A DNA stretch of 64,000 nucleotides from Candidatus Liptonbacteria bacterium (GTDB lineage: Bacteria; Patescibacteriota; Minisyncoccia; UBA6257; 2-01-FULL-56-20): NCBI GenBank assembly GCA_016186635.1, contig JACPLI010000020.1, forward strand, positions 3,548-67,547, read 5' to 3'. Position 1 is the first letter of the stretch. Every line of letters begins with the position of its first letter. This document shows, piece after piece, positions 2,127 to 63,146 of this stretch. The notes below the pieces were generated by a model. That model was not told where the DNA came from. It did not search any database and saw nothing but the letters and a program-made list of their open reading frames with translations. Both the position numbers and the translations under genes were made by a program.

Positions 2127-2903
2127 ATGGCTGACGAAACGAAATCGGCATACCCGCAGGCGCTCGGCGCCGAGCTGAATGATGCGGCGCGCGAGATGAT
2201 TGCCGCAGGCGTATTTTACGGGAAAAAGAAGAGCAAGACGCACCCGCGCATGAAGGCGTGGGTCTTGGCGAACCGCGGGGGCATTGAGATTATCAATTTG
2301 GCGAAAACGGAAGAAGAGCTTTCGCGCGCGGCGGAGTTTGTGAAGGGGAAGGCAAAAGCGGGAGAACTTTTTCTTTTTGTGGGTACCCAGCCGGCGGCGC
2401 AGGATGCGGTGCAATCGGTCGCCGCGGAGTTTAAGATGCCGTTCGTGGTGAACCGGTGGGTGGGAGGAACGCTCACCAATTTCAAAATGATTGCCCAGCG
2501 GGTGGAATACATGAAAAAGCTCCGGACGGGTCTTGCCACGGGGATGTTCGACAAGTACACGAAGAAAGAGCGCCTTGGAATTGAGCGGGAGCTTGGGCGC
2601 CTTATAGAACTTATGGCGGGGCTTGAAGCGCTCGCGCGCGTTCCAGACGCGCTTGTCGTCATTGACCCTGTCGTGCATGAAACGGCGGTGCGCGAAGCCC
2701 TCCAGCTGGGGATTCCGGTCATTGCGCTTGCCGATACCGATGCGGACCCCGACGCAGTGACGCGCATGGTCCCGGGAAATGCGAAATCGAAGAAAAGCAT
2801 CGAATGGTTTTTGGGGAGAGTGAAGGCGGCTGTTGCGGAGGGGAAGAGTGCGGTACAATCTACCGAAGGAGTAATCGCCAATAACGCGAATGGAGGCAAA
2901 TAA
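2127..2903 (+). CDS. rpsB: 30S ribosomal protein S2
   Basis: S2 signature VVNRWVGGTLTNFKMI. The last 12 codons (VIANNANGGK*) are encoded by a family-A palindromic repeat. Confidence 0.9.
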   Translation: MADETKSAYPQALGAELNDAAREMIAAGVFYGKKKSKTHPRMKAWVLANRGGIEIINLAKTEEELSRAAEFVKGKAKAGELFLFVGTQPAAQDAVQSVAAEFKMPFVVNRWVGGTLTNFKMIAQRVEYMKKLRTGLATGMFDKYTKKERLGIERELGRLIELMAGLEALARVPDALVVIDPVVHETAVREALQLGIPVIALADTDADPDAVTRMVPGNAKSKKSIEWFLGRVKAAVAEGKSAVQSTEGVIANNANGGK

Positions 2904-2912
2904 CGCGAATAA
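2867..2912. repeat. Family-A palindromic repeat (GGAGTAATCGCSAATAACGCGAATG core), copy 1
   Basis: ggagtaatcgccaataacgcgaatggaggcaaataacgcgaat. It overlaps the rpsB stop and the tsf start. Confidence 0.8.
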
Positions 2913-3348
2913 GGATGCAGTTCAAAAATTGAGGGAGGCGACGGGCGCGGGGGTGATGGAGTGCCACCGGGCGCTCAAGGACGCCGGCGGCGATTTTGCC
3001 AAGGCGGCGGCGCTTATCGGCGAGCAGGGACTTTCCAAGGTGGAAAAGCGCGCGGGGCGGGAAACCAGCGCGGGGTTGGTGCACGCGTACGTGCACGGCG
3101 AGCGTATCGGTGTCTTGCTCCACGTTTCCGCGGAGACCGATTTTGTGGTGCGTTCGGAGCCTTTCAAGGCGCTCGCGCACGAGCTTGCAATGCACATTGC
3201 CGCGGCGGCGCCGAAGGACATCGCGGAACTTCTCGGTCAGCCCTACATCCGCGACGAGAAGAAAACGGTGAACGACCTCATCGGCGAGGTGATTGCGAAG
3301 GTGGGGGAGAATATACAGGTGAAGGAGTTTTATAGGATAGAACTTTAA
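2890..3348 (+). CDS. tsf: Elongation factor Ts, short form
   Basis: UBA-like N-terminus LREATGAGVMECHRALKDAGGDFAKAAALI. The gene sits directly downstream of rpsB. The first 6 codons lie in the family-A repeat, so the true start is uncertain. Confidence 0.8.
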   Translation: MEANNANKDAVQKLREATGAGVMECHRALKDAGGDFAKAAALIGEQGLSKVEKRAGRETSAGLVHAYVHGERIGVLLHVSAETDFVVRSEPFKALAHELAMHIAAAAPKDIAELLGQPYIRDEKKTVNDLIGEVIAKVGENIQVKEFYRIEL

Positions 3349-3438
3349 AGGAGTAATCGCTAATAACGCGAATGAAGGCAAATAACGCAAATAGGATTCG
3401 CATTATTGAATCCAAATTCGCATTATTCGCGAATACTC
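3349..3438. repeat. Family-A palindromic repeat, full two-arm copy 2
   Basis: Left arm ggagtaatcgctaataacgcgaatgaaggcaaataacgc. Right arm, inverted, ggattcgcattattgaatccaaattcgcattattcgcgaatactcc. Confidence 0.85.
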
Positions 3439-3439
3439 C

Positions 3440-3802
3440 ATGTTAGAATTTGTCCTTGCAAACATCGCAATGCTCTCCGCGGGAGTGGCGCTTTTTCTCG
3501 TTGCGCACTCACTGCCGCGCGTGGGGGAAAGTGAAACGGAGCCGAAATGGTTTCTGGAGCGGTGGGTTACGCTGGAATTTCCCGAGAAACTCGACGGGGC
3601 ATTTAACAGCTTCGCGGGAAAGTTTTTGAGGAAGCTCCGCGTGGTTATACTGAAATTCGACAACGCGGTATCCGGGACACTGAAGCGCTTCAAGAGCGAG
3701 AATGGCAACGGGAAATCGCTTGACTTTAAAGAGATGATGGGGGATAAAGGGGGGGGCGAAGCGAAGGATGAGGATGAGGGCAAGCGAAAAAAATCCAAAT
3801 AA
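3440..3802 (+). CDS. Hypothetical small membrane protein with Lys/Glu/Gly-rich tail
   Basis: 120-aa ORF with an N-terminal hydrophobic helix. It is flanked by repeat elements. No recognisable domain. Confidence 0.35.
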   Translation: MLEFVLANIAMLSAGVALFLVAHSLPRVGESETEPKWFLERWVTLEFPEKLDGAFNSFAGKFLRKLRVVILKFDNAVSGTLKRFKSENGNGKSLDFKEMMGDKGGGEAKDEDEGKRKKSK

Positions 3803-3882
3803 TATGCATACGCTCGTCTATACAATCCCGCTCCGCCAGCCGGCGGACAGCGGGACCTCATAGAAGCAGTTCTTTGGGAAGA

Positions 3883-3992
3883 GGAGTAATCGCTCGTACC
3901 GCGAATGAAGGCAAATCTGCCTGTCGGTAGGCAAATAACGCAAGTAGGATTCGCATTATTGAATCCAAATTCGCATTATTCGCGAATACTCC
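3883..3992. repeat. Family-A palindromic repeat copy 3 with nested family-D motif
   Basis: gaggagtaatcgctcgtaccgcgaatgaaggcaaa + tctgcctgtcggtaggca + aataacgcaagtaggattcgcattattgaatccaaattcgcattattcgcgaatactcc. Confidence 0.8.
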
Positions 3993-3998
3993 CTATAT

Positions 3999-4083
3999 GC
4001 GCAGGTGGTAGAGCGGCCAATTACACGACGCTGTAAACGTCGCGCCCTTTCGGGCTACGGGGGTTCGAATCCCTCCCTGCGCA
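3999..4083 (+). tRNA. tRNA-Tyr (anticodon GTA) with long variable arm, no encoded CCA
   Basis: Hand-folded. Acceptor gcgcagg/cctgcgc, D-stem gtag/ttac, anticodon stem cgacg/cgtcg with loop ctGTAaa, variable arm gccc-ttt-c-gggc, T-arm ggggg-ttcgaat-ccctc, discriminator A. Confidence 0.8.
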
Positions 4084-46519: not shown

Positions 46520-48170
46520 TCTTATGCTCGCTGACGAACTCCGGAAAATAATCAAGGGCGACGCGGAAGCGGACGACACGACGCTTGAGAAATACAGCCG
46601 CGACTTTTCGATTTTCAAGGTGGTGCCGGAGGTGGTGGTGTTCCCGAGGGACACCGAAGACGTGAAAGCGCTGGTGAAGTTTGCGAGCGCGGCGCGGAAA
46701 AGAGGAAGGAAAATCTCATTGACGGGGCGCGCGGCGGGCACGGATATGACGGGCGGGCCGCTTACGGAATCCGTGGTGGTGGACTTCACGCGGCACATGA
46801 ATCGGATTAAGGAAATCGGCAAGGATTATGTGGTGGTGGAGCCGGGAGTGTACTATCGGGACCTCGAACCGGAGCTTGCGCGCCGGGGGCTCATGTATCC
46901 GGCGTACCCCGCATCGAAGGATTACTGCGCCATCGGCGGCATGGTGATGAACAATGCGGGAGGCGAGAAGACGCTTCTCTACGGCAAGACCGAGCAGTAT
47001 GTGGCGCAAATAAAAATGGTGCTCGCGGATGGGGAGGAGCATGTGATAAAGCCCATGTCGCGCGGCGCGCTTGAGGAATGCGCGGGAAAGCGAGATTTCG
47101 AGTGTGCGGCATGGAGAAAGCTCCGGCGGATGCTCGAGCGGCGCGCGAACGCGATTGCGGCGGCGCGCCCGGACACGTCAAAGAATTCCTCCGGTTATTC
47201 GCTCTGGAACGTGTGGGACGGGAATACCTTTGACCCGGTGAAACTTTTCGTGGGCTCGCAAGGGACGCTTGGGCTCATGACAGAGGTAAAATTGCGGCTC
47301 GTGCCGAAGCCGGCGCACACCCAGCTTGTAGTGCTTTTCCTGCGCGATATCGAGCGCATCGGCGACCTCGTGAACGAGATTCTCAAAGTGAAACCGGAGA
47401 GCATTGAGTCCTACGACGACAAGACGCTCGGCGTGGTGCTCCGTTATCTTCCCAGTTTCATTTGGTCCATGAAAGGGGATTTCCTGAAGCTTGCATGGAG
47501 TTTCCTTCCAGAGGTGGGGATGATGCTTCGCGGCGGGGTTCCGAAGATGATTCTCTTGGTGTCGCTCACTGCCGATACAGAACAGGAACTTCATGCGCGC
47601 ACCATCAAGCTGGTGCACATGGTGCGGCGGGAGTTCCGGCTCCCTGTCCGCGCGGTGCGCGATAAGGCGGAAGAGGAAAAGTATTGGACGATTCGGCGCC
47701 AGAGCTTTGCGCTCCTTCATGGGCACATCAAGGACCGCGACACCGCGCCCTTCATTGATGACATCGCGGTACAGCCGCGGCACCTCCCTGAATTTTTGCC
47801 GAAGCTCAATGCGATTCTTGAGCGCTATAAAGACAAGCTTATCTATACGATTGCCGGGCACCCGGGGGACGGAAACTTCCATATTATCCCGCTCATGGAT
47901 TTGAAGAATCCAAAAGTGCGCGCGCTCATTCCCGCCATTTCCGATGAGGTATATGCGCTTGTGCTGCGCTATCGCGGCTCTATCACTGCCGAGCACAACG
48001 ACGGCATCATCCGCACGCCCTACGTAAAGGAGATGTATGGCAGGGAGGTGTACGCGCTCTTTGAGGAGGTGAAGCACACTTTCGACCCGCAGGGCGTTTT
48101 CAACCCTGGAAAGAAAGTGAGAGGGACGCTCAAATATGCGCTCGAGCATATCAGGAGTAATCGCGAATAA
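46506..48170 (+). CDS. FAD-linked oxidase (GlcD / D-lactate dehydrogenase-like)
   Basis: FAD-binding PCMH pattern with RGLMYPAYPASKDYCAIGGMVMNNAGGEK. The C-terminus RSNRE* is encoded by a family-A repeat. Confidence 0.85.
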   Translation: MAITPLMLADELRKIIKGDAEADDTTLEKYSRDFSIFKVVPEVVVFPRDTEDVKALVKFASAARKRGRKISLTGRAAGTDMTGGPLTESVVVDFTRHMNRIKEIGKDYVVVEPGVYYRDLEPELARRGLMYPAYPASKDYCAIGGMVMNNAGGEKTLLYGKTEQYVAQIKMVLADGEEHVIKPMSRGALEECAGKRDFECAAWRKLRRMLERRANAIAAARPDTSKNSSGYSLWNVWDGNTFDPVKLFVGSQGTLGLMTEVKLRLVPKPAHTQLVVLFLRDIERIGDLVNEILKVKPESIESYDDKTLGVVLRYLPSFIWSMKGDFLKLAWSFLPEVGMMLRGGVPKMILLVSLTADTEQELHARTIKLVHMVRREFRLPVRAVRDKAEEEKYWTIRRQSFALLHGHIKDRDTAPFIDDIAVQPRHLPEFLPKLNAILERYKDKLIYTIAGHPGDGNFHIIPLMDLKNPKVRALIPAISDEVYALVLRYRGSITAEHNDGIIRTPYVKEMYGREVYALFEEVKHTFDPQGVFNPGKKVRGTLKYALEHIRSNRE

Positions 48171-48262
48171 TGCGAATGGGGGCAAATAATGCGAATGAAG
48201 AAGCATAAGAAGAAATAATTTGCATTATTGAAATTACAATTTGCATTATTCGCGATTACTCC
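48153..48262. repeat. Family-A repeat copy 6 (full two-arm)
   Basis: aggagtaatcgcgaataatgcgaatgggggcaaataatgcgaatg...tttgcattattgaaattacaatttgcattattcgcgattactccc. Confidence 0.85.
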
Positions 48263-52357: not shown

Positions 52358-52593
52358 CAGGAGTTTACGAGGCTGTGGATAACCGGCTTGACACGGATGA
52401 GGAAGGGGAATATTCTCTACCGGTAGCCATGTCAAAGATTTCAGCCGTGCAAAATAATCACAAGCTTTATACGCCCTCGTTCGGCGCGTGGGATTTTTGC
52501 TTTAGTTTCAGCTTTATCTTTAGCAAGCCTCGCGAGGGGGTAACTGGAAATGTATGACTGTGGAATAGATATTGTTCCAAAGTAACCAGTGAA

Positions 52594-52628
52594 AACCTCC
52601 TCGCACCGCGAGGAGGTTTTGTTTTTTG
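52594..52628 (+). terminator. Rho-independent terminator-like hairpin
   Basis: aacctcctcgcaccgcgaggaggtt followed by ttgtttttt. Confidence 0.65.
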
Positions 52629-52823
52629 GGAGTCCCTCATCTTATCCGCTGTTTTATGAAAACGGCAGGAAAACAGCAGATAAGATGAGTGTCTCCGATG
52701 GATACCGGAACCATCTGCGGCATTCAGCTAGGTAGTAAGTAAGTGAAAAGTGTTAAGTGATAAGTTAGCAAAAGGTTATTGTATTAAAACGTCGCGATTG
52801 CGCATAGCAATTAAGAAAATCGC

Positions 52824-53513
52824 ATGAAAATAGGAGTTTTGGGAGGTACCAGTCCACTGGTAAGTATTCAGTTGCAGAGGCTGATTGCGGAGTCTACTCC
52901 TGCGAGAAAGGACGAAGACCATTTGGAGGTGGTGTGCTACACCAATCCAAAGGTTCCCGATTGCGCCGACGGGCCCGAGAGCGACCGGGACGCGACGGAG
53001 CATCATGAAGCACTCGTGACTTCCGCGCAGCTTTTGGTGCGGGCGGGCGTTTCCATGATTGCGATACCGTGCAACCGGGCGCATATGCGTATTACGGACA
53101 TTCAAGGGCGTGTTCCGGTGCCGGTCATGAATATGGTGGAGCTTGCGGTGCGCCGGGTTGTTGAGGAGCATGGCAAAGCCCACGTAGGTCTTATTGCCGC
53201 GGGACCGGTGGTTACCGGCAAGATATATGAACGTACGCTGCCCGATTCAGGAGTGCATTGGATATTGCCCGACGCGCGGGGGCAGGAAGCGGTGGCGAAA
53301 GCCGTGCAGGCGGTCAAGGCGAATGCGGACGTGGACGGCAGCGCGGTGGTGAAGGTCGCAAAACAACTCATCGAGAACGGCGCGAAAGTGCTCGTCGTGG
53401 GTTGCACGAAGCTTTCCATGCTTACGGAAGATATCGAGAAACTGGGGAAGCCGGTAATTGACCCCATGCGCGTGCTTGCGGAGCACCTTGTGGACCAGGC
53501 GAGAGTAGTGTGA
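52824..53513 (+). CDS. Asp/Glu/hydantoin racemase family protein
   Basis: MKIGVLGGTSPLVSIQLQRLI. The conserved Cys lie in IPCNRAH and VVGCTKLS. Confidence 0.8.
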   Translation: MKIGVLGGTSPLVSIQLQRLIAESTPARKDEDHLEVVCYTNPKVPDCADGPESDRDATEHHEALVTSAQLLVRAGVSMIAIPCNRAHMRITDIQGRVPVPVMNMVELAVRRVVEEHGKAHVGLIAAGPVVTGKIYERTLPDSGVHWILPDARGQEAVAKAVQAVKANADVDGSAVVKVAKQLIENGAKVLVVGCTKLSMLTEDIEKLGKPVIDPMRVLAEHLVDQARVV

Positions 53514-53556
53514 AGTAAAAGCGGCGAGGAATCTCGGTTCCTCGCCACTTTCCGTC

Positions 53557-53692
53557 TCGGGTATTGATTTCAGGCGAGGCGCCCCGCATGAAATCAGTAT
53601 CGGAGGAAACCATGTTGTGTGGACGTGGCCGATGCTGAAGCTCTTTGACTTCTTAAAAAACGTGCGAAGTGAAAGAGTTGATTAATGCAGCA
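53557..53692 (+). promoter_or_regulatory. Duplicated leader element L1: hairpin, RBS, 8-codon uORF MLCGRGRC (53612-53638), second hairpin, then gene start MQQRWE
   Basis: Near-identical (~95%) to 57674-57821. Hairpin tgatttcaggcgag..ctcgcatgaaatca, then ggaggaaaccATG, then ctctttgacttc..gaagtgaaagag. Confidence 0.7.
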
Positions 53693-54380
53693 ACGTTGGG
53701 AGATACATATGCTAAAAAGTTTTTTGGAGTTTGACCCTATGAAATGGACGGCGGAGACGAAGAAAGATGTTGTGAAGTCTCCGATGGTGAAGAAGGTAGT
53801 GTCGTTTGCGCTTGGGCCGAACGGCACTAATATTGCCCAGGCGGCGGGGCGCTGGCACGAAGAAATGGGAATTTCCGCTAAGGCGGAAATCAAGCTTTGT
53901 GATTTGCCGGAATCGGCGGTGCGGGAAAATTTGGCATTGCACGAAGATGGAGCTTTGGGGGTGTTCTGGACGTGCGCCGTGTTCAAGCGCCTGAATGAGG
54001 TGTTTTTTGATAACCCTGGGACATTCCCGTTTTTTTTCCAGTACGATATGCTTTTGGATGAGATGCAGCTTGCTGCTATCTCACGGGAGTGTTCGAAAAT
54101 TGATAATCCGGCGTCCATGACGATTGCTACACATGTGTCGCCAGCTCCTTTGGTGGTAGAGCTTGTGGCCGCTCACGCTCGGGTTGTGGATGCAAGCAGT
54201 AACGCCGAAGCCGCCCGTAAGTGCGAGGCGGGGGAAGTGACGGCGTGCATAACGACCGAGACTGCAAGACTTATGCAGCATCTTGTCACACTACACCGTT
54301 TCGGCTCCCCTCTCATGGTTTTCTTTGGTGGAATCACAGAGAGTGGACTTGCCTTGCTGACTTTGGCTGACGGACGCTAG
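53685..54380 (+). CDS. Prephenate dehydratase-like protein without ACT domain; resembles BacA/AerD/SalX non-aromatizing prephenate decarboxylases
   Basis: VSFALGPNGTNIAQAAG parallels the BacA LGPEGTSSEYAA. SNAEAARKCEAGEVTACITTETARL parallels STSQAARKVKEGLYDIALTNELARQ. No ENS or TRF motifs, and no regulatory domain. 231 aa. Confidence 0.6.
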   Translation: MQQRWEIHMLKSFLEFDPMKWTAETKKDVVKSPMVKKVVSFALGPNGTNIAQAAGRWHEEMGISAKAEIKLCDLPESAVRENLALHEDGALGVFWTCAVFKRLNEVFFDNPGTFPFFFQYDMLLDEMQLAAISRECSKIDNPASMTIATHVSPAPLVVELVAAHARVVDASSNAEAARKCEAGEVTACITTETARLMQHLVTLHRFGSPLMVFFGGITESGLALLTLADGR

Positions 54381-54511
54381 GACGTCACTCCGGCACTCAA
54401 CTCTTAAGTGGATGCATCAGCATTCCACAAGCAATTTCAATCCCCGTTGCGGCAACGCAGCGGGGGCCTTCTTTTTTTGGTTTCTTGAGTTATGCTTGAA
54501 AATAGAATGGC

Positions 54512-56047
54512 ATGAAGAAAGCGCAATCAAAATTTACGCAGGCAGTTATCGGCGCCAAGGGGAATATGGGCCGCTTTTTGGCGCAACACTTGGTTGCGCT
54601 CGCGCCGGTTATAGAAATAGATGCGGACAGCAGCGCTGCCGCGTGGAGAAAAGCCTGGAAAGCGGATGTGATATGGCTTTCTATTCCGCGGGAAGCAATT
54701 GATTCGACGTTTCGGGGGAAGAAACTCAACAAAAACCAGCTTGTTGTCGATATTTGCTCTGTTAAAAGCGATGTGGGGAGAATTATCGGGGAGAGCGGCG
54801 CCACTCACCTTTCCCTGCATCCGTTGCATGGTCCGAAGGTTCCTTTAATAGGACAGCGTTGGGCGGTAATACAAACCTCTTCGCATGGCGAGCAGCATCC
54901 TCTGGGGCGCGTAACGCTCGATTTTTTCAGAAAGCAAGGAGTGGCCTTTTTGCCGCCGGTCCCGCATGACCAGCACGATTTTATGATGGGAGTTACTTTG
55001 AGTATTCCGGAAGTTCTCACTGTCGTTTTAGACAGAGTTATCGGTAGTTATGCAAAACGTTCGGGGAAGCCTGTTCCTTCTCAAGAAGAACTGATGCGGT
55101 GGGCAGTGCCTGCTTCGAACGCCATTTTCGGCGCGTACGTGCATATCGTGAACAGCACGCCGGAGTGGCTGCGGTATGAGATTGTGAAGCAGGCTCCGCA
55201 TGATGTCTTGGGCGCCATTCGTGATGCTTGTCGGGGGATTGAAGAACTTTCTTTAGGCGATGTGGAAAAGGAGGTTGCGGAGCAGGCACAAAGCGTGCAT
55301 CAGATTTCTCCCGCAGAGCAGGACCGTATCCGCCGGTGGATTAACCAGTGGTTTGTGGACTCGACCAAGACATTCTTTAAAACCGCGAAAGAGAGCCGTG
55401 TGAAACCGGCATTAAACATCCAATGGATGGAGAAGAAGGAAGCAATCTTTCCGCGTTCCAAGAAATCCCTTACCGTGGGGATTCACGGAATAGACGGTTG
55501 TTTCACGCACGAGGCGTTGCTGCGCTTTCTTGAAGAAAACGGAATTTCCGAACACCGCGTGGCGCCGAAGTTCCTTGTGACCGCAGAGAATGTGCTTGAA
55601 GCGGTTACTTCCGGTAAAACGGACTTGGGGATATTTGCAATCGCGAATTCCGGTTCGGGCGCTTACGTTTCGAGCATGGCGCCGATCGCAAAACATACGT
55701 TCAAAGTGCAGGCAGTGATGGGTATGGAAATTATGCAGTGTCTTTTGGCGCACAAGTCGGTGAAAAGCGTGGATGGCATCAAGGAAGTGTTTGGTCATCC
55801 GCAGGCGGTGAGCCAGTGCAAGCGGACGCTTGAAGAAAGTTATCCGCGGCTCAAAGTTGTTGCCGGAAAAGACAGCGACGACACGGCGCTTTGCGCGAAG
55901 TGGATTGCCGAAGGGATTCTGCCGAGAACCACCGCGACCCTCGCCTCGCAGATAGCCGCGAGGCGCTACGGGCTGAATATCATTTCCTACAACATGCACC
56001 ACGACCCGTTCAATACGACGACGTTTCTTCTCGTATCAAGGAAGTAG
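54512..56047 (+). CDS. Fusion protein: prephenate/arogenate dehydrogenase (TyrA) N-domain plus atypical PDT-like C-domain
   Basis: N-terminal NAD site AVIGAKGNMGRFLAQHL. C-terminal PDT fold with ANSGSGAY (not ENS) and NTTTFLLV (TTF, not TRF). No ACT domain. Confidence 0.7.
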   Translation: MKKAQSKFTQAVIGAKGNMGRFLAQHLVALAPVIEIDADSSAAAWRKAWKADVIWLSIPREAIDSTFRGKKLNKNQLVVDICSVKSDVGRIIGESGATHLSLHPLHGPKVPLIGQRWAVIQTSSHGEQHPLGRVTLDFFRKQGVAFLPPVPHDQHDFMMGVTLSIPEVLTVVLDRVIGSYAKRSGKPVPSQEELMRWAVPASNAIFGAYVHIVNSTPEWLRYEIVKQAPHDVLGAIRDACRGIEELSLGDVEKEVAEQAQSVHQISPAEQDRIRRWINQWFVDSTKTFFKTAKESRVKPALNIQWMEKKEAIFPRSKKSLTVGIHGIDGCFTHEALLRFLEENGISEHRVAPKFLVTAENVLEAVTSGKTDLGIFAIANSGSGAYVSSMAPIAKHTFKVQAVMGMEIMQCLLAHKSVKSVDGIKEVFGHPQAVSQCKRTLEESYPRLKVVAGKDSDDTALCAKWIAEGILPRTTATLASQIAARRYGLNIISYNMHHDPFNTTTFLLVSRK

Positions 56048-56177
56048 TTGATTCCCATTGGCGGGTGCGGTAGGGTGGTAGGGCTTGTCTAGAAAGACGG
56101 GCTTTCCTTAACAATTTTAATGACGATGTTCGAAGCGCATGGCAGCGTCGGCGAGCGTCGTTCCACAACCAAAATGA

Positions 56178-57380
56178 GTGAAGGTACTTATGAGAAAATC
56201 ACGATTGTCAGTCGGTGCGGATTTATTTGTCAGAATAAAGTCTGCAATTGCGGCGGCGGAAGCGTCGGGCAGGAAGTTGATTCCGCTTGCCGTCGGGCAA
56301 CCGACAGGAGCGGCATTCCTTGAAGCGAGACGAGCCGCCGCCGTGGCAGTTATGAGCGAGGCGGAAGCGATGCATCAGTATCAAGACGTATGGAGTCCCG
56401 GGGTGCCGAACTTTGCCGAGCGGTTCGTGCAGACGCATGTGAAGACGAAACTTGCGAGGCAAAGCGTGGACTTTCTGCCGATACCGGGAATTAAGTCGAT
56501 CTTGAAAACGGTCATCATCGCGTCGCGCTGTTCCAGTGAGCGACTCAAGGTCCGGACGATGACGGCTCCGGGCTACGGCGTTCCTGCCACGTGGTGCAAG
56601 GGGCACTTCCGCGATTTCATCACCCATACGGAAGTGTCGCTTAACCCGAGGAATCGCTTCTTATTTGATCCAAGCTTCGACCTTGAGAATCTAACGCACG
56701 GCTTGCTCATGCTGAATTACCCACACGCGCCATCCGGACAGATTGCGAGTCAGGAGTGGCTCTGGCGTGTGTGCAGATTTTGCGAGGCGCAGAACATTCG
56801 CATCTTCAACGATGCGGCATACACGGCGCTTGTGCACGCCCCCAAAAATCATTCAACGCTCACCGACGTTGCAGTTGAGTTTCCTAATCTGTCTTGGGCG
56901 GAAGCATTTTCCGCGTCAAAGGCACTGGGAAACACCACGGGGTGGCGTATCGGCGCGGTTGCGGGGTCACCCGATTTTGTGGACGATGTGCGGACTGTCA
57001 AATCAAGCGATGATGCCGGGTTCGTAGCGTTTGCTGCGGCGGGAGTCATTGAAGGGTTTGAGAAGTATGCGCATCTGATTGAGGCGAACCGCAAAGTCTA
57101 TGCTCGACGACTGCGACTACTCATTAAGTGTCTTCGGTCGAAAGGCATGCGGCTTGCAGTTCAACCGAAAGCAGGCTTCTTCACGCTTTGGCTCACGCCA
57201 AAGCGGGCATTCGGTCGGGACATCGCATCGGCAGAGGACTTCAACTTCCTCATGCTTCAACGCACACGCATCTTTGGGGTGCATTTCCCTCCCTATCTCC
57301 GCTATGCGGTGGTAGGGGACGTGGAAGCGGCGCTCCCCGAGATTGGCGCCGCATTCGAAGCGGCGAAAGTCGCTTATTAA
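56178..57380 (+). CDS. Class I/II pyridoxal-phosphate-dependent aminotransferase
   Basis: LMLNYPHAPSGQIAS, IFNDAAYTALV, and a Lys-containing SASKALGNTGWRIG-like segment. ~400 aa. Confidence 0.8.
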   Translation: MKVLMRKSRLSVGADLFVRIKSAIAAAEASGRKLIPLAVGQPTGAAFLEARRAAAVAVMSEAEAMHQYQDVWSPGVPNFAERFVQTHVKTKLARQSVDFLPIPGIKSILKTVIIASRCSSERLKVRTMTAPGYGVPATWCKGHFRDFITHTEVSLNPRNRFLFDPSFDLENLTHGLLMLNYPHAPSGQIASQEWLWRVCRFCEAQNIRIFNDAAYTALVHAPKNHSTLTDVAVEFPNLSWAEAFSASKALGNTTGWRIGAVAGSPDFVDDVRTVKSSDDAGFVAFAAAGVIEGFEKYAHLIEANRKVYARRLRLLIKCLRSKGMRLAVQPKAGFFTLWLTPKRAFGRDIASAEDFNFLMLQRTRIFGVHFPPYLRYAVVGDVEAALPEIGAAFEAAKVAY

Positions 57381-57393
57381 TCAGCTTTATCAT

Positions 57394-57433
57394 GCAGGCG
57401 GACGGGTTTCCTCGTCCGCCTGCTTGTATTTTT
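57394..57433 (+). terminator. Rho-independent terminator after the aminotransferase gene
   Basis: caggcggacgggtttcctcgtccgcctg followed by cttgtattttt. Confidence 0.8.
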
Positions 57434-57449
57434 GGGATCCTATCTCTAC

Positions 57450-57478
57450 TTGACAAGGTTTTTAAAGGAGAATAATCT
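57450..57478 (+). promoter_or_regulatory. Sigma70-like promoter (TTGACA-17-TAATCT)
   Basis: -35 ttgaca at 57450-57455, a 17-nt spacer, and -10 taatct at 57473-57478. It drives a ~200-nt unit ending at the terminator at 57645. Confidence 0.55.
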
Positions 57479-57644
57479 GAATGTAATATGATGTGCAGAG
57501 TGCAAAATTTAGCGTGCATCGTCCCATTCTCCCCATCGTTCGCGGCGGCTTTTTGGTTTACATTTTATGGATTTACCACCAAGGAGGCGGGAGAAAAAGC
57601 CACACTGTAAGGAATCAGACTGAAACACAAATAGAAATTTCTCC

Positions 57645-57675
57645 AAGCCTCCTCCAAAAGGAGGCTTTTCGTTTC
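57645..57675 (+). terminator. Rho-independent terminator immediately before leader L2
   Basis: aagcctcctccaaaaggaggctt followed by ttcgtttc. Confidence 0.7.
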
Positions 57676-57821
57676 GGGTATTGATTTCAGGCGAGCCGCC
57701 TCGCATGAAATCAGTATCGGAGGAAACCATGTTGTGTGGACATGGCCGATGCTGAAGCTCTTTAACTTCTTAAAAAACGTGCGAAGTGAAAGAGTTGAAA
57801 GAAATGCAGCAACGTTGGGAG
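57674..57821 (+). promoter_or_regulatory. Duplicated leader element L2 with uORF MLCGHGRC (57729-57755)
   Basis: Second copy of the 53557 element. It includes a copy of the first 6 codons (MQQRWE) of gene 53685, but here they run into a short dead-end frame. The real downstream gene starts at 57886 in another frame. Confidence 0.7.
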
Positions 57822-57885
57822 CATAGTTTGTTATGTTATGTTTTTTTCTTCTGGCGGTGGAAATCCGCTTGGGAAGGAGATTGCG

Positions 57886-59265
57886 ATGAATACGCAACTC
57901 CAGGAGATGTTCGATGTGATGATGGGAAGAGGTGACAAAAGGTTGCGGGTGTATGGAGGCAAGGGTGGCAACCTTGAAAGGGGTATCGTGCTTGACTCGG
58001 GGAACGCCTTCGGTAGGTCATTGAGTGACTTGCTTGAAAGGCATGAGTACCAGGCGCGGAGGTTTCAGGTGGAACCTGCTGCGGTCATGCAAGTCTTCAC
58101 AGGCTCCATTTCAGGGGTTTCAACAGGAAGGACGCTGGATGGTTTGTTCGATCTTCCGTTGTTCTGTATGGATGTTGCGGAAAACCCAGCATCTTTGGAA
58201 CACACAACCATCACCATGGGTTTCGGAGGTTCGACATCACCAACTCCTCTCCGTTTCCCTGCATATGTCGTGCCAGCGATGAGAATGCTTTGCGGGCTTG
58301 AGGCGCTTGGATTGCCTTTGCCTGCAGTGCGGCTCATTTCAGCACAGATGAGCGCGGTTACCGTAAACGGCATGAATGCGGCGGAACTTTGGCCTGCAAC
58401 ACTTACCAACTTCGCGGCGGCGAAACTCTTCGTGGAAGAGTTTTTTCCGAAGGTTGCCCATCGGCTTCTGGTCGATTTTGATCAGCCGCTTGAGGGGGAA
58501 TACTTGGAAGCTGCGACGGCACTTGGAGAGTATGTCACAAGAGAGGGTAAGAAAGAGCGAATTCTTGATGAGGCCTTTGCAGCGATGGAACGACAGGGGC
58601 GGCAGCATGGCGGGGCAGAGAGAGCAATGTTGTACGTGGCGTTGCACGTTCTCCTTTCGCCTGATTGCACCGCTGGGAAATTCGGTTCTCCATGGGTTTC
58701 CGCATGTCACCAAAATGGCATCGTGGATCAGATTATGATTACCGCAGGGTGCGAGACCGAAGGCTACTTCAACGCCCTTCGGCGATTCCTAGCCGAGAAT
58801 GCTCGGAAGGTTCTCGGTGGAGCAGTGAGGTTTCCTCGCCGATCTTTGCAGGTAATCTTCGGGGCGCATGTTCCTCCGTACTATCCAAGGGTTGGAGAAT
58901 TGGACTTTCAGTCAAGGAGAATCGAGAGCTTGCTTTATGACTTCAAGGGGAAGCCCCGGGGAGATTCCGAATGGCGACGGGCGAGAGCGGATCATGAGCT
59001 GGCCTGGGATTATGACGTGCTTGAAGCCGCCGCAGGGGGCTGGAGGCCGTTTCTCGAGTGGGTGTGGGACACAGCAGCTCTCTTTGAGCTTGCTGATGGA
59101 TTAGGGAACAACGCGCGAGAGCGGTTTGCGGGATTGGTCTTGCGGGATGATAAGCAACGCGACCCTTTCGCCATTTTGTTGGAAGCGTATGCTGAAAAAT
59201 TGAAGGGCAAATCATTTGCTGCTCTATGTGCGCTTCAGCGGCAAAGGTTTCTGAATGGGACATAG
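57886..59265 (+). CDS. Hypothetical protein (459 aa), cluster member
   Basis: Long ORF with ordinary codon usage and no recognisable motif. Start at M17 of the track ORF. Confidence 0.5.
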   Translation: MNTQLQEMFDVMMGRGDKRLRVYGGKGGNLERGIVLDSGNAFGRSLSDLLERHEYQARRFQVEPAAVMQVFTGSISGVSTGRTLDGLFDLPLFCMDVAENPASLEHTTITMGFGGSTSPTPLRFPAYVVPAMRMLCGLEALGLPLPAVRLISAQMSAVTVNGMNAAELWPATLTNFAAAKLFVEEFFPKVAHRLLVDFDQPLEGEYLEAATALGEYVTREGKKERILDEAFAAMERQGRQHGGAERAMLYVALHVLLSPDCTAGKFGSPWVSACHQNGIVDQIMITAGCETEGYFNALRRFLAENARKVLGGAVRFPRRSLQVIFGAHVPPYYPRVGELDFQSRRIESLLYDFKGKPRGDSEWRRARADHELAWDYDVLEAAAGGWRPFLEWVWDTAALFELADGLGNNARERFAGLVLRDDKQRDPFAILLEAYAEKLKGKSFAALCALQRQRFLNGT

Positions 59266-59396
59266 TCCGAGGGTGGACTCGCACGAGTGTTGGTAAACAA
59301 ATTTGAGGGAGACATATGACTTGTGTCTCCCTCAAACCCGTTTCACAGAAGTTGAACCGCATCTCTTAATACGATATTGTGATACGTATATGCACT

Positions 59397-60851
59397 ATGA
59401 AAGAAGTTTTAATTGAACAAAAAAAGCAAATCGCGGAAAAGGTGGACGCGGTGCTCAAGAAAATTCTCGATGGGAGACCGGCGCTCCAGGCGATTGCGGA
59501 GGCGCGCACTCTTGGGGAATACTTGGAGCCTCCGCTCCGATGGAATCCGGAAAAGGGAGCGTTTCCGCTGCGCCCGCTTCTTGAGGACTTAATATTGAAG
59601 GAAGCCGAACGCTTATACGGAATCCCAACGCGCGAGGCGTTGCGGGAAGAGTTTTCCAAAAACTGGGCGGTGGAGACAGGGGCGCATATTTATTTGCCGC
59701 GGCGGTATGACCGACTCGAGAAGAAAGGGGCGGGGCAAATCAATCCCGTGGTGTTTCAGGGGCAGGTGCTGTGGGCGGCGCTGCGGCGCGCGCTTTTGGG
59801 GAGCCGCATTAACTTCAGCATGAATACCGGCCGCATACCGCTCTGCAATGCAAATAGCGGCGCATATTTGGATTTTTCTTTTTCCACGGAGCCGCTCCGC
59901 CTCGTGAGCAACCGCTATATGAATACGCCGCAGCTCTTTATTCCCGCGCTGGACGATGAAAAACTCAAAGAGAAAACCGAACAGCTTCAGGCGCTTGCGA
60001 GTCAGGAAAAAATTACCGATGCCGAATATGCGTACGCGAAGGAAGTACTTGCTGTGTTTGTGGAGCATCGCGACGGGCGCTTCAATCACCAGGTGGCGGT
60101 GGGGCAGGCGCATATTATGAATAAAGTATTGCCGCAGGGAATGAGGCAAGTCACGATTGACCTCGAGAATATCGGCACCGCATTCATAGTGCGGCTTTTG
60201 CGGGACCCGTCGAGTACGCTTTACCGGATATTCAGCGATGAAAAGCTTCGCGCCCGTTTCTATGGCGCATTAAAGGGCATCCGCACCGCATGGGAGGAAG
60301 GGGACAGTATGTTTTACGAAGTGGACCGTTCGGGGAAGGAGCTTAAGCTGCGCGAGTACAGGGGAGACTTAATGCCCGAGGTACTTGCGGACCTGCTTGA
60401 ATCCGAGCGTATTCTCCACAAAGGACTCCTTGGTTTTTATATATTCATCATTGAAGGCGGGTTGTGCCCTATCGGCGGTATGTTCCAGTCGCAATATTGC
60501 ATCGAGCTCCGTGACCGTATGATTCCCATACTTGAGGCGATTGGCGAAGAAGCTCGTGCCGCGCATCTTCAAGAGATGCCCACTGCGGTTGCGGCGACGT
60601 CCCCCTGCTGGGGGCTTGTGCGGAGGGGCGCGGGAGTGGAGCTCTTGATTGCCATGGATTGCATGGCGGTGCCTTTATCCGAAGCCGATTTCGCTAAAAT
60701 TCCCGCCCTCTCCGGAAGGGATTCATTGCGCCTTGCCGCGCCGTCGCTTGCCCAACTCATGCTCCACGAGGAAGCCGGAGTTACTTACGAGGAATTGCGG
60801 GAACTCTTGGGGGAGCATATTGTTACTCGCGGGATGAGTACTGCAACATAA
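59397..60851 (+). CDS. Hypothetical protein (484 aa), cluster member
   Basis: Long ORF with no recognisable motif. Its stop overlaps the next gene's start (ATGA). Confidence 0.5.
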   Translation: MKEVLIEQKKQIAEKVDAVLKKILDGRPALQAIAEARTLGEYLEPPLRWNPEKGAFPLRPLLEDLILKEAERLYGIPTREALREEFSKNWAVETGAHIYLPRRYDRLEKKGAGQINPVVFQGQVLWAALRRALLGSRINFSMNTGRIPLCNANSGAYLDFSFSTEPLRLVSNRYMNTPQLFIPALDDEKLKEKTEQLQALASQEKITDAEYAYAKEVLAVFVEHRDGRFNHQVAVGQAHIMNKVLPQGMRQVTIDLENIGTAFIVRLLRDPSSTLYRIFSDEKLRARFYGALKGIRTAWEEGDSMFYEVDRSGKELKLREYRGDLMPEVLADLLESERILHKGLLGFYIFIIEGGLCPIGGMFQSQYCIELRDRMIPILEAIGEEARAAHLQEMPTAVAATSPCWGLVRRGAGVELLIAMDCMAVPLSEADFAKIPALSGRDSLRLAAPSLAQLMLHEEAGVTYEELRELLGEHIVTRGMSTAT

Positions 60852-61984
60852 TGAACATGTTCACCATTACCGGCGGTTCCATTTCGAAAATAACGATTCC
60901 GCTCGTGAAGCCGTTCGTCACAAGTTTCGGCAGTATTGCAGAGCGGGAAATCGTGCTTGTCTCGCTCGAGACGAAGGAAGGGGCGATTGGCTGGGGAGAA
61001 GCCCCCGTGCTTTCCCTGCCCGTGTACGGCGCGGAGATTCCCGAAAGCGCAATTGCGGTGATTGCCCGAGTCATTTTCCCGCGTGTGCGGGGTGTCTCGT
61101 TCGCGCACCCAGAGGAACTCGATACCGCGCTCGGCTTTATTCGCGGCAACGAATTTGCGAAGAGCGCGGTGATTATGGCGGCGTACGACCTCTACGGGCA
61201 ACTTGGGAAAAAGCGGCTGGTGGACCTTATCGGCGGCACGAGGAATGAAGTGCAAAACTCCGCGACTATCTCGATTCACGAACGCCCAGAGGACGCGATT
61301 GAGGAAGCGCGTGGGTACTATGACGCGGGAATTCGCTTTTTGAAACTCAAGATAAAGCCGGGGTTTGACTATGAGCATGCGCGGGCAATCCGCGAATCGT
61401 TCCCGGAAGCGAAACTGATGCTTGATGCGAATGCGAGCTATGCATTTTCGCCCGATGCAATTGCAATTTTGAAGAAGTGCGATGCGCTGGGGCTCTATTG
61501 CCTTGAACAGCCGTTCCGCGCCCGGGAACTTCTCGCGCATGCGAAGCTTCAGCGGGAAATCAAGGCGCCTCTCGCGCTTGATGAAAGCGTGGAATCATAC
61601 GCCGACGCAGAGCAGGTGATTGAGCTCGGAAGTGCTAAGTTGGTGAACGTCAAAATTGCGCGCGTGGGGGGACTTGTTCAGGCGCTCGCAATCAACAAAC
61701 TATGCGCCGCGCACGGCGTCCCCGCATGGGTGGGCGGTATGCTTGAGTCGCCGGTGGGGCTTTACGCGAACCTCGCGCTTGCGAGCGTGCCGAACTTTGA
61801 CTACCCGATTGATTTTCTTGACACGTTCACGTATCTCCGCGAGTATGCGTCGTTTTTCACCCGCGTGCCGTTCGAAATTCGCGGAGGGACTGTCGCCATC
61901 TCGCTTTCTGGATATGGCTTAGGACTGGAACTCGACTGGGAGCGCTGTAGAAGCCACATTTCGGAGCGCATTCCGTTGGCGTGA
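60851..61984 (+). CDS. Enolase-superfamily MLE-subgroup enzyme (dipeptide epimerase / N-succinyl-amino-acid racemase / OSBS-like)
   Basis: KxK in FLKLKIKPG, metal ligands in LMLDANASY, ...LEQP..., and LALDES. Confidence 0.8.
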   Translation: MNMFTITGGSISKITIPLVKPFVTSFGSIAEREIVLVSLETKEGAIGWGEAPVLSLPVYGAEIPESAIAVIARVIFPRVRGVSFAHPEELDTALGFIRGNEFAKSAVIMAAYDLYGQLGKKRLVDLIGGTRNEVQNSATISIHERPEDAIEEARGYYDAGIRFLKLKIKPGFDYEHARAIRESFPEAKLMLDANASYAFSPDAIAILKKCDALGLYCLEQPFRARELLAHAKLQREIKAPLALDESVESYADAEQVIELGSAKLVNVKIARVGGLVQALAINKLCAAHGVPAWVGGMLESPVGLYANLALASVPNFDYPIDFLDTFTYLREYASFFTRVPFEIRGGTVAISLSGYGLGLELDWERCRSHISERIPLA

Positions 61985-62018
61985 GCGATAACTAATTATT
62001 TTCACCTTTACAATTACA

Positions 62019-63146
62019 ATGAAGAATCAGGAAATCCAGAAGATATTGTTTGACCTCATACGTTTTAAGACAGAAACAAAAAAGCAGAGCGAAGTGAAGC
62101 GGGCAATCGGGTATATCGGGAAGTTTTTTGCGGGGACTTCGTATGCGGTGAAGCGCTTCGCGAAGCACGGTGTGCATTCGCTGCTGGTGTATCCAAAAGG
62201 TACAAGCTGGAGAAATCCGGAAGTTCTCCTGAACGGCCATGTGGATGTGGTTCCCGCAAGCGAGGCGGGGCAGTATGCGCCATTCAGGCGCGGGCATAAA
62301 GTGTTCGGGCGCGGGTCGTCCGATATGAAAGGAGGACTTTCCGCGATAATCGGCGCGCTTCTTGAACTTGATGCGAAGCGTGTGCGGCATGGTGCGGCGT
62401 TTCTCGTGAACGGCGACGAGGAGGTGGGGGGAGCGCATGGCGCGGGGTATGTGGTGAACGACATAGGCATCCGGCCGAAGTTCGTGGTGGTCGCCGATAA
62501 CCCGCGGCATGAGGGATTTGTGGTTACTACGAAAGAGAAAGGAGGAATATGGCTCGAGCTCACCGCTCGCGGGAGGGCGGCGCATGCGGCGTACCCGTGG
62601 CTCGGCGAAAATGCGCTTGAGAAGCTCATTCATGCGGTGGGGAAGATTCAGCGCCTCGTGGGGAAGGTGCGGCCCGACGCATGGAAGACCACCGTAAACC
62701 TCTCGGGGATTCATACGGACGGCGCGACGCATAACATGGTTCCCGCAGGGGCGCGCGCCATGCTTGATTTGCGCTTCACGGAGGAGTTTGCGAAGAGCGC
62801 GGATGAGGCGTACCGGAAAGTACGGCGCGCGGTGCCGGGGGTGGAAGTGCGTGCGCTTGTGAAAGTGGCGCCGCTCCGAAATAACCATCGGCACGCGCAC
62901 ATTCGGAATTTTCGGTCGCTCTTTTCCCGGACTCTCGGCAGGAAAATTCCCTTCGGGTACGGGCACGGCGCGAGCGATGCGCGTTACTTCGGCGCGCGCG
63001 GTATTCCGAGCATCCTTGTGGGCACCGTCGGCGCGCACTGGCATTCCCGGGGCGAATGGGTTGATTTCCGCACGGTGCTTGCGCTCAAAGACGTGGTAAA
63101 GGCATACATTGTGAAGCACCATGTTCATCGCGAGGTTAACTCTTGA
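62019..63146 (+). CDS. M20-family metallopeptidase/deacylase (ArgE/DapE/desuccinylase-like)
   Basis: GHVDVVPA, GRGSSDMKGG, and VNGDEEVGG. Confidence 0.85.
   Translation: MKNQEIQKILFDLIRFKTETKKQSEVKRAIGYIGKFFAGTSYAVKRFAKHGVHSLLVYPKGTSWRNPEVLLNGHVDVVPASEAGQYAPFRRGHKVFGRGSSDMKGGLSAIIGALLELDAKRVRHGAAFLVNGDEEVGGAHGAGYVVNDIGIRPKFVVVADNPRHEGFVVTTKEKGGIWLELTARGRAAHAAYPWLGENALEKLIHAVGKIQRLVGKVRPDAWKTTVNLSGIHTDGATHNMVPAGARAMLDLRFTEEFAKSADEAYRKVRRAVPGVEVRALVKVAPLRNNHRHAHIRNFRSLFSRTLGRKIPFGYGHGASDARYFGARGIPSILVGTVGAHWHSRGEWVDFRTVLALKDVVKAYIVKHHVHREVNS

Follow-up and report, generated by a model that had tools for sequence, protein, structure and literature searches.

Repeated leaders among genes for aromatic amino acid metabolism

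The window considered here is a stretch of 64,000 nucleotides (64 kb) of contig JACPLI010000020.1 from a Candidatus Liptonbacteria metagenome-assembled genome (MAG) of the Candidate Phyla Radiation (CPR)/Patescibacteria. It contains a direct repeat of ~155 nt whose two copies lie 4.1 kb apart in the same direction, copy 1 at 53548 to 53702 and copy 2 at 57665 to 57821 (both + strand), and which represents a new and very narrowly distributed family of structured leader RNAs that act in cis. Copy 1 is located between the gene for an Asp/Glu-type racemase (52824 to 53513) and a BacA-like (short PDT-like) gene (53709 to 54380, + strand) which has a weak match to PF00800 and whose product is 100% identical to HYW65_02975 of the Liptonbacteria MAG. 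The BacA-like gene is followed by a PDH_N-PDT fusion (54512 to 56047), an aminotransferase (56178 to 57380), a terminator (57394 to 57423), a small open reading frame (ORF), a second terminator, and copy 2. Downstream of copy 2 are an orphan gene for a 459-amino-acid (aa) protein (57886 to 59265), a 490-aa gene without an assigned family, and genes for an OSBS/N-succinylamino-acid-racemase (NSAR)-type enolase and an M20 deacylase.

An earlier reading made from the letters of this DNA (the original prediction) had described two near-identical leaders in front of two operons, and the repeat itself was recovered: positions 53548 to 53681 and 57665 to 57798 align without gaps at 96% identity, and the alignment extends to 53702/57821 at 93.6% identity with one 2-nt indel. 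A 19-nt seed of the repeat occurs exactly twice on the + strand, compared with 0.01 expected occurrences in the 64-kb window. Two covariance models, R1 and R2, were built for the motif; R1 scored copy 1 at 177 bits and copy 2 at 169 bits, and neither model found a third copy in the window.

Each copy had also been said to follow a terminator. This is so for copy 2, which is directly preceded by a terminator-like site called by the terminator scan (57645 to 57667 plus a U run), but not for copy 1. Ten nucleotides past the racemase stop codon is a GC-rich hairpin, GGCGAGGAA/UUCCUCGCC (53523 to 53546, + strand), which is not a convincing terminator because it has no U run and which was not among the sites called by the scan. 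Equivalent hairpins lacking a U run precede the motif at three places in related contigs (L001_B, L008_D, and L015). Since an attenuator unit precedes the racemase gene (see below), copy 1 is probably intercistronic within a racemase-BacA-like operon.

The gene starts behind the two copies were then compared with those of homologues. The BacA-like gene had been thought to begin at ATG 53685, within a sequence, ATGCAGCAACGTTGGGAG, that is indeed shared by both copies, but this start is ruled out by homologue N termini (MLKQFPKF, MKMLPVFPQF, and MPILPVFPQ) and by frame breaks, ATGCAG being out of frame with the BacA-like gene in L015/L019 and in the P0003 contig. The homologue N termini place the start at ATG 53709, correcting the annotated start of HYW65_02975. 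The shared ATGCAGCAACGTTGGGAG is the 3' strand of a helix, P4 (CAGCA, straight after the ATG), together with a Shine-Dalgarno (SD)-like GGGAG. The duplication therefore carried the leader, as proposed, but not the first codons of the gene. The proposal that the real gene behind copy 2 starts 65 nt past the end of the repeat was correct: ATG 57886 is the start called by NCBI as well and is supported by homologues, and the SD sequence AAGGAG (57874 to 57879) precedes it. In the copy-2-specific spacer (57822 to 57888, + strand), a hairpin is predicted in which UUUCUUCU pairs with this SD sequence.

Fold, covariation, and relatives of the leader RNA

Both copies fold alike and better than shuffled sequences (z = -4.3), and the conserved feature is an RNA of three hairpins (P1, P2, and P3), not the upstream ORF (uORF) of eight codons on which the original prediction had centered. 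P1 (53555 to 53606, + strand; 57672 to 57723 in copy 2), previously noted as a long bulged hairpin, has a base of UCUC/GAGG, a G.G mismatch at 53559/53602, a core of 13 bp (53560 to 53572/53589 to 53601) within a whole helix of about 22 bp, and a variable tip; the GGAGG at 53602 to 53606, which is the SD sequence of the uORF, is situated in its base. The second hairpin then described is P3 (53639 to 53679, + strand; 57756 to 57796 in copy 2), with the form AGCUCUUU-G-ACUUC, an A-rich 13-nt loop, and GAAGU-G-AAAGAGUU, its 13-bp stem containing a single mismatch, either G.G or A.G. Between the two, the earlier layout had overlooked the small hairpin P2 (53610 to 53628, + strand; 57727 to 57745 in copy 2), in which 7 bp (CCAUGUU/GACGUGG) enclose the loop GUGUG and which holds the AUG of the uORF. 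P3 is in turn enclosed by P4 (53629 to 53699, + strand), formed by CCGAUGCUG (53629 to 53637) and CAGCA..UUGG (53688 to 53699), with ATG 53685 sitting in the P3-P4 linker directly 5' of the CAGCA strand. The last conserved bases of the repeat, GGGAG (53698 to 53702, + strand), have a predicted unpaired probability of 0.06 to 0.22 and are likely the SD sequence of the BacA-like gene, 6 nt before ATG 53709. The corresponding ATG and GGGAG in copy 2 are at 57804 to 57806 and 57817 to 57821 (+ strand). Folding models predicted GGGAG to be paired in four genomes.

Covariation was assessed in an alignment of 10 sequences restricted to P1 and P2 (22 pairs, with 213 cells counted for G.U). Overall, 97.7% of the cells were paired, with changes on both sides in 10 of the 22 pairs, and none of 500 shuffles reached the observed covariation; slid controls were 33 to 48% paired. 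The 15 pairs of P1 contained five double-sided changes, with 98.7% of cells paired, and the seven pairs of P2 also contained five. P1 and P2 are strongly supported by these compensatory changes, and the motif is a covarying structure in a sense-strand 5' untranslated region, a criterion used for riboswitches. The bases invariant over all types of the motif are UCGG...CGGA round P1, one G in the P2 loop, and UCUUUG.

The same data bear on whether the repeat acts as RNA or DNA. G.U pairs made up 30 of the 213 cells (14% of paired cells), and R2 scored 84 to 88 bits on the + strand versus 35 to 37 bits on the - strand, which together argue for a sense-strand RNA rather than a DNA palindrome. Coding on either strand is also contradicted, since the type A copies differ by indels of 1 to 2 nt. 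A DNA-level element, with P1 as the operator of a dimeric factor or with a promoter carried by the repeat, would accord with the near-perfect inverted repeat of P1, with a TTGATT resembling a -35 box, and with the lack of an obvious promoter of its own for copy 1. We regard it as very improbable, since the G.U pairs would be mismatches in DNA (A.C on the other strand), the distance between the P1 arms ranges from 9 to 18 nt depending on the type, two more hairpins are conserved on the same strand, and the promoter scan called nothing in either copy. Extracytoplasmic function (ECF) or sigma-70 promoters inside the repeat were considered individually and rejected, their spacings being misfits and no call being made by the scan.

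To place the motif in a wider context, contigs of relatives were gathered through protein homologues and two pattern scans. Besides the two copies in the window, there were 10 placements in relatives (L001, L004, L008, L015, L019, and L027), all on the sense strand and all upstream of a gene; the original prediction had urged such a search for further copies. They fall into five diverged types, A to E, in Liptonbacteria-like CPR contigs. Type A, to which both window copies belong, occurs in L001, L004, L015, and L019 before the BacA-like gene, the 459-aa gene, or a truncated gene without an assigned family. Type D (L008:10020-10160) precedes a BacA-like gene, and types B (L001:3944-4088), C (L008:17349-~17490), and E (L027:4628-4765) precede a gene for a ~600-aa protein, after which come genes for an S58 peptidase and a racemase. 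The motif marks three operon types, namely, BacA-like/PDH-PDT/aminotransferase, ATP-grasp-ligase/S58-peptidase/racemase, and the orphan 459-aa gene. All types share 5'-UC-G-[P1]-G-GA-3' and a P2 of 4 to 7 bp with a loop of 4 to 9 nt. P3 was re-predicted independently in types A, B, and D as CUCUUU-G-stem, A-rich loop, and stem-G-AAAGAG, and as a variant in type E, its loop always being A-rich. In type B, a 40-codon ORF, MSGKNLSDGNRIIVGTRRIGSSSMVQAFRNAQTVNMWWHV (L001:4132-4254), lies between the motif and the ATP-grasp gene, with its stop codon overlapping the gene start (AUGA); this order of motif and small ORF is reversed relative to types C and E.

The distribution of the motif was examined with the pattern TCGGNTNNTGAT..ATNAGNANCGGA..TCTTTG, by which type E-like members would be missed. 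Over 596 Gb of genomes plus a metagenome collection, matches were confined to this lineage, apart from five false positives, and one complete related MAG contained exactly two. Covariance model searches found no motif in the distant syntenic loci L021 to L026 and L028; as L026 and L028 have the attenuator alone, the motif is a separable add-on module. In the ATP-grasp operon leader of L026 (L026:9880-9960), the strings ACUGGAC...CUUGUCAAA, as in types C and E, follow the attenuator terminator without a covariance model match, and this region may be a degenerate or very divergent relative. Searches of Rfam 15 (4227 families) at the gathering threshold returned a single tRNA for the whole window, and permissive scans of both copies gave matches at chance level (E ≥ 0.33). 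In the literature on riboswitches and structured RNAs of Patescibacteria/CPR, nothing relevant was found. Candidates suggested by known elements were also discarded: types B, C, and E do not conserve a hammerhead-like core (CUGA..GAAA) seen by eye, which is also without a match in Rfam; of CsrA-type GGA sites, the CGGA after P1 is invariant and the second GGA is not conserved; and a T-box was dismissed for want of an RF00230 match at E ≤ 10 and of a UGGN in the P2 loop conserved across types.

These results also bear on whether the repeat is a mere dispersed element, as which the original prediction itself would have dismissed it had copies elsewhere not been upstream of genes. Two near-identical 150-nt copies only 4.1 kb apart could suggest a selfish or neutral small repeat, like miniature inverted-repeat transposable elements or repetitive extragenic palindromes, that landed after hairpins by chance, and similarity within a genome about equal to that between genomes could be explained by movement or gene conversion. 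The regulatory leader is upheld over this alternative, which we find hardly credible: all copies are oriented as the downstream gene, the 64-kb window and one complete related MAG have only two each, terminal inverted repeats and target duplications are missing, old diverged paralogues keep their fold by compensatory changes, and the large-scale scans found this lineage only. Comparison of the window with L001 gave an identity of 94% for the element and of 62 to 85% for the flanking coding sequence. Between the window (52800 to 59300) and L004, nucleotide identity was 90 to 99% for the racemase and PDH-PDT genes, 63 to 74% for the BacA-like gene, and 45 to 67% for the 459-aa gene; this mosaic between two Liptonbacteria genomes suggests recombination or gene replacement within the cluster.

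The uORF was examined for its part in the device. As predicted, GGAGGAAACC followed by an eight-codon ORF is found in both copies, encoding MLCGRGRC at 53612 to 53638 (+ strand, with stop) and MLCGHGRC at 57729 to 57755. It is confined to type A, types B, C, D, and E retaining the fold without it. Within type A, the start codon varies between AUG and GUG, CGU is replaced by CAU (Arg to His), GGC is replaced by GAC (Gly to Asp) with a compensating change across P2, and the stop codon UGA is changed to UGG in L004 and L019a, giving a 14-codon ORF. All of these changes are neutral to the helices, and none conserves the peptide. It was conceivable that translation of MLCGRGRC, or stalling on it, melts P2 and P4, thereby uncovering the downstream start and possibly reporting the supply of Cys, Arg, or Gly. 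In 8/8 type A copies, a strong SD sequence, GGAGG, precedes the AUG or GUG by 5 nt, the uORF ends within the 5' strand of P4, the 3' strand of which adjoins GGGAG, and masking a ribosome at the uORF stop codon raised the predicted accessibility of the downstream SD sequence in three of four genomes (0.19 to 0.43, 0.06 to 0.28, and 0.16 to 0.28). The window copy, however, was unaffected (0.22 to 0.20), the SD sequence and AUG of the uORF are themselves buried in P1 and P2 (predicted unpaired probability of 0.0 to 0.38), the amino acid changes are nonconservative, and there is no link between Cys/Gly/Arg codons and an operon in which the other leaders count aromatic ones. A translational attenuator driven by the uORF is thus quite unlikely. 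The notion of a translation-coupled attenuator or riboregulator survives as a regulatory leader, the uORF not being supported as its core. Because it is absent from types B to E, its peptide is not conserved, and the masking effect is inconsistent, the uORF is at most an accessory feature of type A.

Leader peptides upstream of the repeats

Between the aminotransferase terminator and copy 2, a unit at 57450 to 57675 exhibited both structural hallmarks of leader-peptide attenuators, an ORF with clustered codons and mutually exclusive 1:2, 2:3, and 3:4 helices. A sigma-70-like promoter (57450 to 57478, + strand; TTGACA, 17 nt, TAATCT), read by inspection and not listed by the promoter scan, precedes a leader-peptide ORF of 40 codons, MMCRVQNLACIVPFSPSFAAAFWFTFYGFTTKEAGEKATL (57488 to 57610, + strand), in which FWFTFYGF is encoded by aromatic codons at 57551 to 57574. 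Of the attenuator helices (57549 to 57675, + strand), 1:2 (57549 to 57557/57578 to 57586) lies over the aromatic codons, the antiterminator 2:3 pairs 57582 to 57596 with 57638 to 57653 (-22 kcal/mol), and the terminator 3:4 pairs 57645 to 57653 with 57659 to 57667 (-14 kcal/mol), followed by a U run reaching into the 5' flank of copy 2. As modeled, the unit is a textbook leader-peptide transcription attenuator. A CTTGACAGG-type promoter is also present before the small ORF in seven related loci, and the length, aromatic cluster, and C-terminal half of the leader ORF are kept in L004, L001, and L019, while its N-terminal half diverges.

A similar unit at 52388 to 52627 precedes the racemase gene, with a promoter at 52388 to 52416 (TTGACA at 52388 to 52393 and TATTCT at 52411 to 52416), a Phe-rich leader ORF at 52429 to 52557 containing FGAWDFCFSFSFIFS, and a terminator at 52592 to 52620 plus a T run. 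From its ORF and terminator, this unit is assigned as a second attenuator of the same kind. After its terminator come a long hairpin (52636 to 52689) and a short one, a P1-P2-like grammar that neither covariance model matches.

The unit at 57450 to 57675 resembles the pheA/pheST, trp, and his attenuators in its aromatic-codon ORF, its 1:2, 2:3, and 3:4 helices, and its terminator, and the racemase unit resembles them in ORF and terminator. The repeat differs from these systems, its uORF being without aromatic codons, no terminator following it, and its own position being downstream of a terminator. No terminator-like sites were called within 53555 to 53702 or 57672 to 57821, P3 being AU-rich, having a loop of 13 nt, and lacking a U run; the Rfam Phe_leader family (RF01859) remained below threshold, at 21.5 bits compared with a gathering score of 55. 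The earlier statement that the leader is not a classical Phe/Tyr one is therefore right for the repeat itself but overlooks the aromatic attenuators, one directly upstream of copy 2 and another before the racemase gene.

Leader peptides were also observed in distant BacA-like operons, FFHFFYF in L021, FCFSFFFNF in L023, and FYFGFFF in L025, with terminators following; these Phe-rich leaders (L021:9813-9935, MSMLADKFFHFFYFSR; L023:3131-3340; L025:1039-1165, MKFTGFYFGFFFS) are from Pacebacteria and others. They support an aromatic amino acid role of the BacA-like/PDT genes, and leader-peptide attenuation seems common in aromatic operons of the CPR. In the window and in L001, L004, L008, L019, L026, L027, and L028, the leader-peptide AUG is located only 8 to 15 nt past the -10 hexamer without an SD sequence, so that the mRNAs from which these peptides are made are apparently leaderless or nearly so.

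The motif thus lies past a first control point, copy 2 after the attenuator terminator and copy 1 between the racemase and BacA-like genes. Such positions raise the main rival to a regulatory role, in which P1 is an RNase III-type site or a 5' protective hairpin and no ligand is sensed. Such an element would separate the leader from the mRNA and set its half-life, or would shield the attenuator folds from downstream sequence. In keeping with this, a long hairpin after an attenuator terminator recurs without the motif (52636 to 52689 and in L025), an intercistronic position such as that of copy 1 is a typical place for differential processing, and P1 is the best-conserved and most covarying part of the motif. 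A simple hairpin would nevertheless need neither the invariant CGGA, P2-loop G, and UCUUUG nor P2 and a P3 with an A-rich loop, and L028 is without any such hairpin. We consider processing, stability, or insulation alone to be unlikely.

Possible mechanism and the genes concerned

On balance, we lean toward the repeats being a lineage-restricted, structured, cis-acting leader RNA that serves as a second checkpoint after the attenuator, probably by gating translation. The motif is predicted to be transcribed together with the downstream genes, and computation indicates that the operons bearing it are first controlled by aromatic leader-peptide attenuators. The motif would then act on those transcripts that read through, with translation initiation as the most likely step. 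Once folded, it would have all of its ribosome-binding site (RBS)-like purine tracts paired to CUCU-type pyrimidine strands, GGAGG being held in the base of P1, AAAGAG in P3, and GGGAG beside P4 and a closing helix. Action at translation initiation is suggested by the pairing of these tracts and by two further types: in type C, the apparent SD sequence of the gene is supplied by the AAAGAG of P3, the gene start, ATG 17493, being backed by the conserved N terminus FDVPRLFFTL, and in type E, the model has a closing helix covering the bases just before the start codon. A specific partner, a putative small molecule or protein, is suggested by the invariant unpaired bases, the A-rich loop, and the two G.G mismatches that are conserved. 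The conserved unpaired bases may be the binding site of this partner, at which it would shift the equilibrium, and in type A the leader could also be opened by translation of the uORF.

Several observations weigh against the gating of translation by a conserved leader. The spacing between GGGAG and ATG is 6, 8, 12, or 13 nt depending on the genome, 12 to 13 nt in two of them being beyond normal SD reach, and the modeled pairing partner of GGGAG varies between genomes. P3 of type C was not recovered by energy minimization. Since the regions 3' of P3 differ among types, with an extra hairpin in B, D, and E and the 40-codon ORF in B, no single expression platform is definable. The statistics rest on few independent lineages (only five diverged types), and conservation of type A between the window and L004 says little, as the two are closely related and their divergence is mosaic.

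The proposed gating was compared with known systems. With SD-sequestering riboswitches, the motif shares a covarying multihelix fold, invariant unpaired bases, RBS-like tracts in helices, a sense-strand 5' position common to linked operons, and variable 3' parts. It differs from them in having no match in the 4227 Rfam families, in its helices being arranged serially and not round one junction, and in sitting behind another regulatory device. The leader of the window can be likened to the Salmonella mgtA and mgtCBR leaders, which combine the sensing of leader-peptide translation with a separate structured RNA and so have two inputs. In mgtA, the ORF is inside the sensor, whereas in the window the aromatic leader ORF and terminator precede the motif; we know of no similarity in sequence or structure between these leaders and the motif. 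Translation attenuation of ermC and cat resembles type A in having an SD-preceded short ORF before hairpins that hold RBS-like sequences, but the motif family as a whole does not keep the ORF, a stalling motif dependent on an inducer is missing, and the modeled opening is inconsistent. The repression of heat shock gene expression (ROSE) thermometers are like the P1 base and P3 in opposing purine-rich SD-like and U/C-rich strands with a conserved G.G mismatch; the motif, unlike them, has no Rfam ROSE match, is much larger with its three hairpins, and precedes genes unrelated to heat shock.

A bolder and, in our estimate, rather doubtful version is that P1-P2-P3 constitutes a new Patescibacteria riboswitch class which binds a metabolite of the aromatic amino acid or peptide pathway specified by its regulon and works in tandem with an attenuator sensitive to tRNA charging. 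Candidate ligands such as Phe, Tyr, prephenate, arylpyruvate, or a dipeptide product are proposed from the regulon context, which proves nothing. To our knowledge, there is no natural riboswitch for an aromatic amino acid.

The proteins encoded behind the motif were therefore considered together. The ~600-aa protein that follows types B, C, and E (L001:4251-6080, P0106; L008:17493-19334; L027:4769-6649) belongs to a family that is widespread in Patescibacteria, has no Pfam domain, and always has the S58 peptidase, and usually the racemase, after it. Its confident AlphaFold2 model (predicted local distance difference test [pLDDT] score of 89) best matched ATP-grasp ligases of the glutathione synthetase/glutathionylspermidine synthetase type (E = 1e-13 to 1e-9; target template modeling [TM] scores of 0.45 to 0.59). 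The 459-aa protein has three homologues among 5.8 billion proteins, both of the source-named ones being from Liptonbacteria, and its AlphaFold2 model, with a pLDDT of 41 and three homologues, was not usable. Sequence searches of the 459-aa, 490-aa, and ~600-aa proteins against Pfam, NCBIfam, and the PDB returned nothing. At 60851 to 63146, the OSBS/NSAR-type enolase (TIGR01928, 236 bits) is beside an M20 DapE/ArgE-type deacylase, a pairing typical of N-acyl-amino-acid racemase/deacylase pathways for D-to-L conversion. The ATP-grasp ligase, racemases, S58 peptidase, NSAR-type enolase, and M20 deacylases together suggest that the regulon handles small peptides and aromatic amino acids, perhaps in the D form. 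Elsewhere in the window, two other repeat families, D2 and D4 (AGGAGTAATCGC..AATAACGCGAAT.., 2867 to 3992), flank a tRNA with a long variable arm (3999 to 4083), and a further copy is found 44 kb off at 48153 to 48205.

The CPR/Patescibacteria have tiny genomes, and their regulation is hardly known. Here, three classical aromatic leader-peptide attenuators and two copies of a structured leader RNA not described before are found within 6 kb. The small regulon defined by this RNA takes in enzymes of aromatic amino acids, an ATP-grasp amide ligase accompanied by a peptidase and a racemase, and an orphan gene. The phylogenetic reach of the motif is small. Should its ligand be a metabolite, the motif would represent a new class of riboswitch and help to show what these unannotated genes do, and the riboswitch reading, if true, would mean two-input control in organisms thought to be minimally regulated. 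Were the motif a processing element or a translation gate, layered RNA-based control in the CPR would still be documented.

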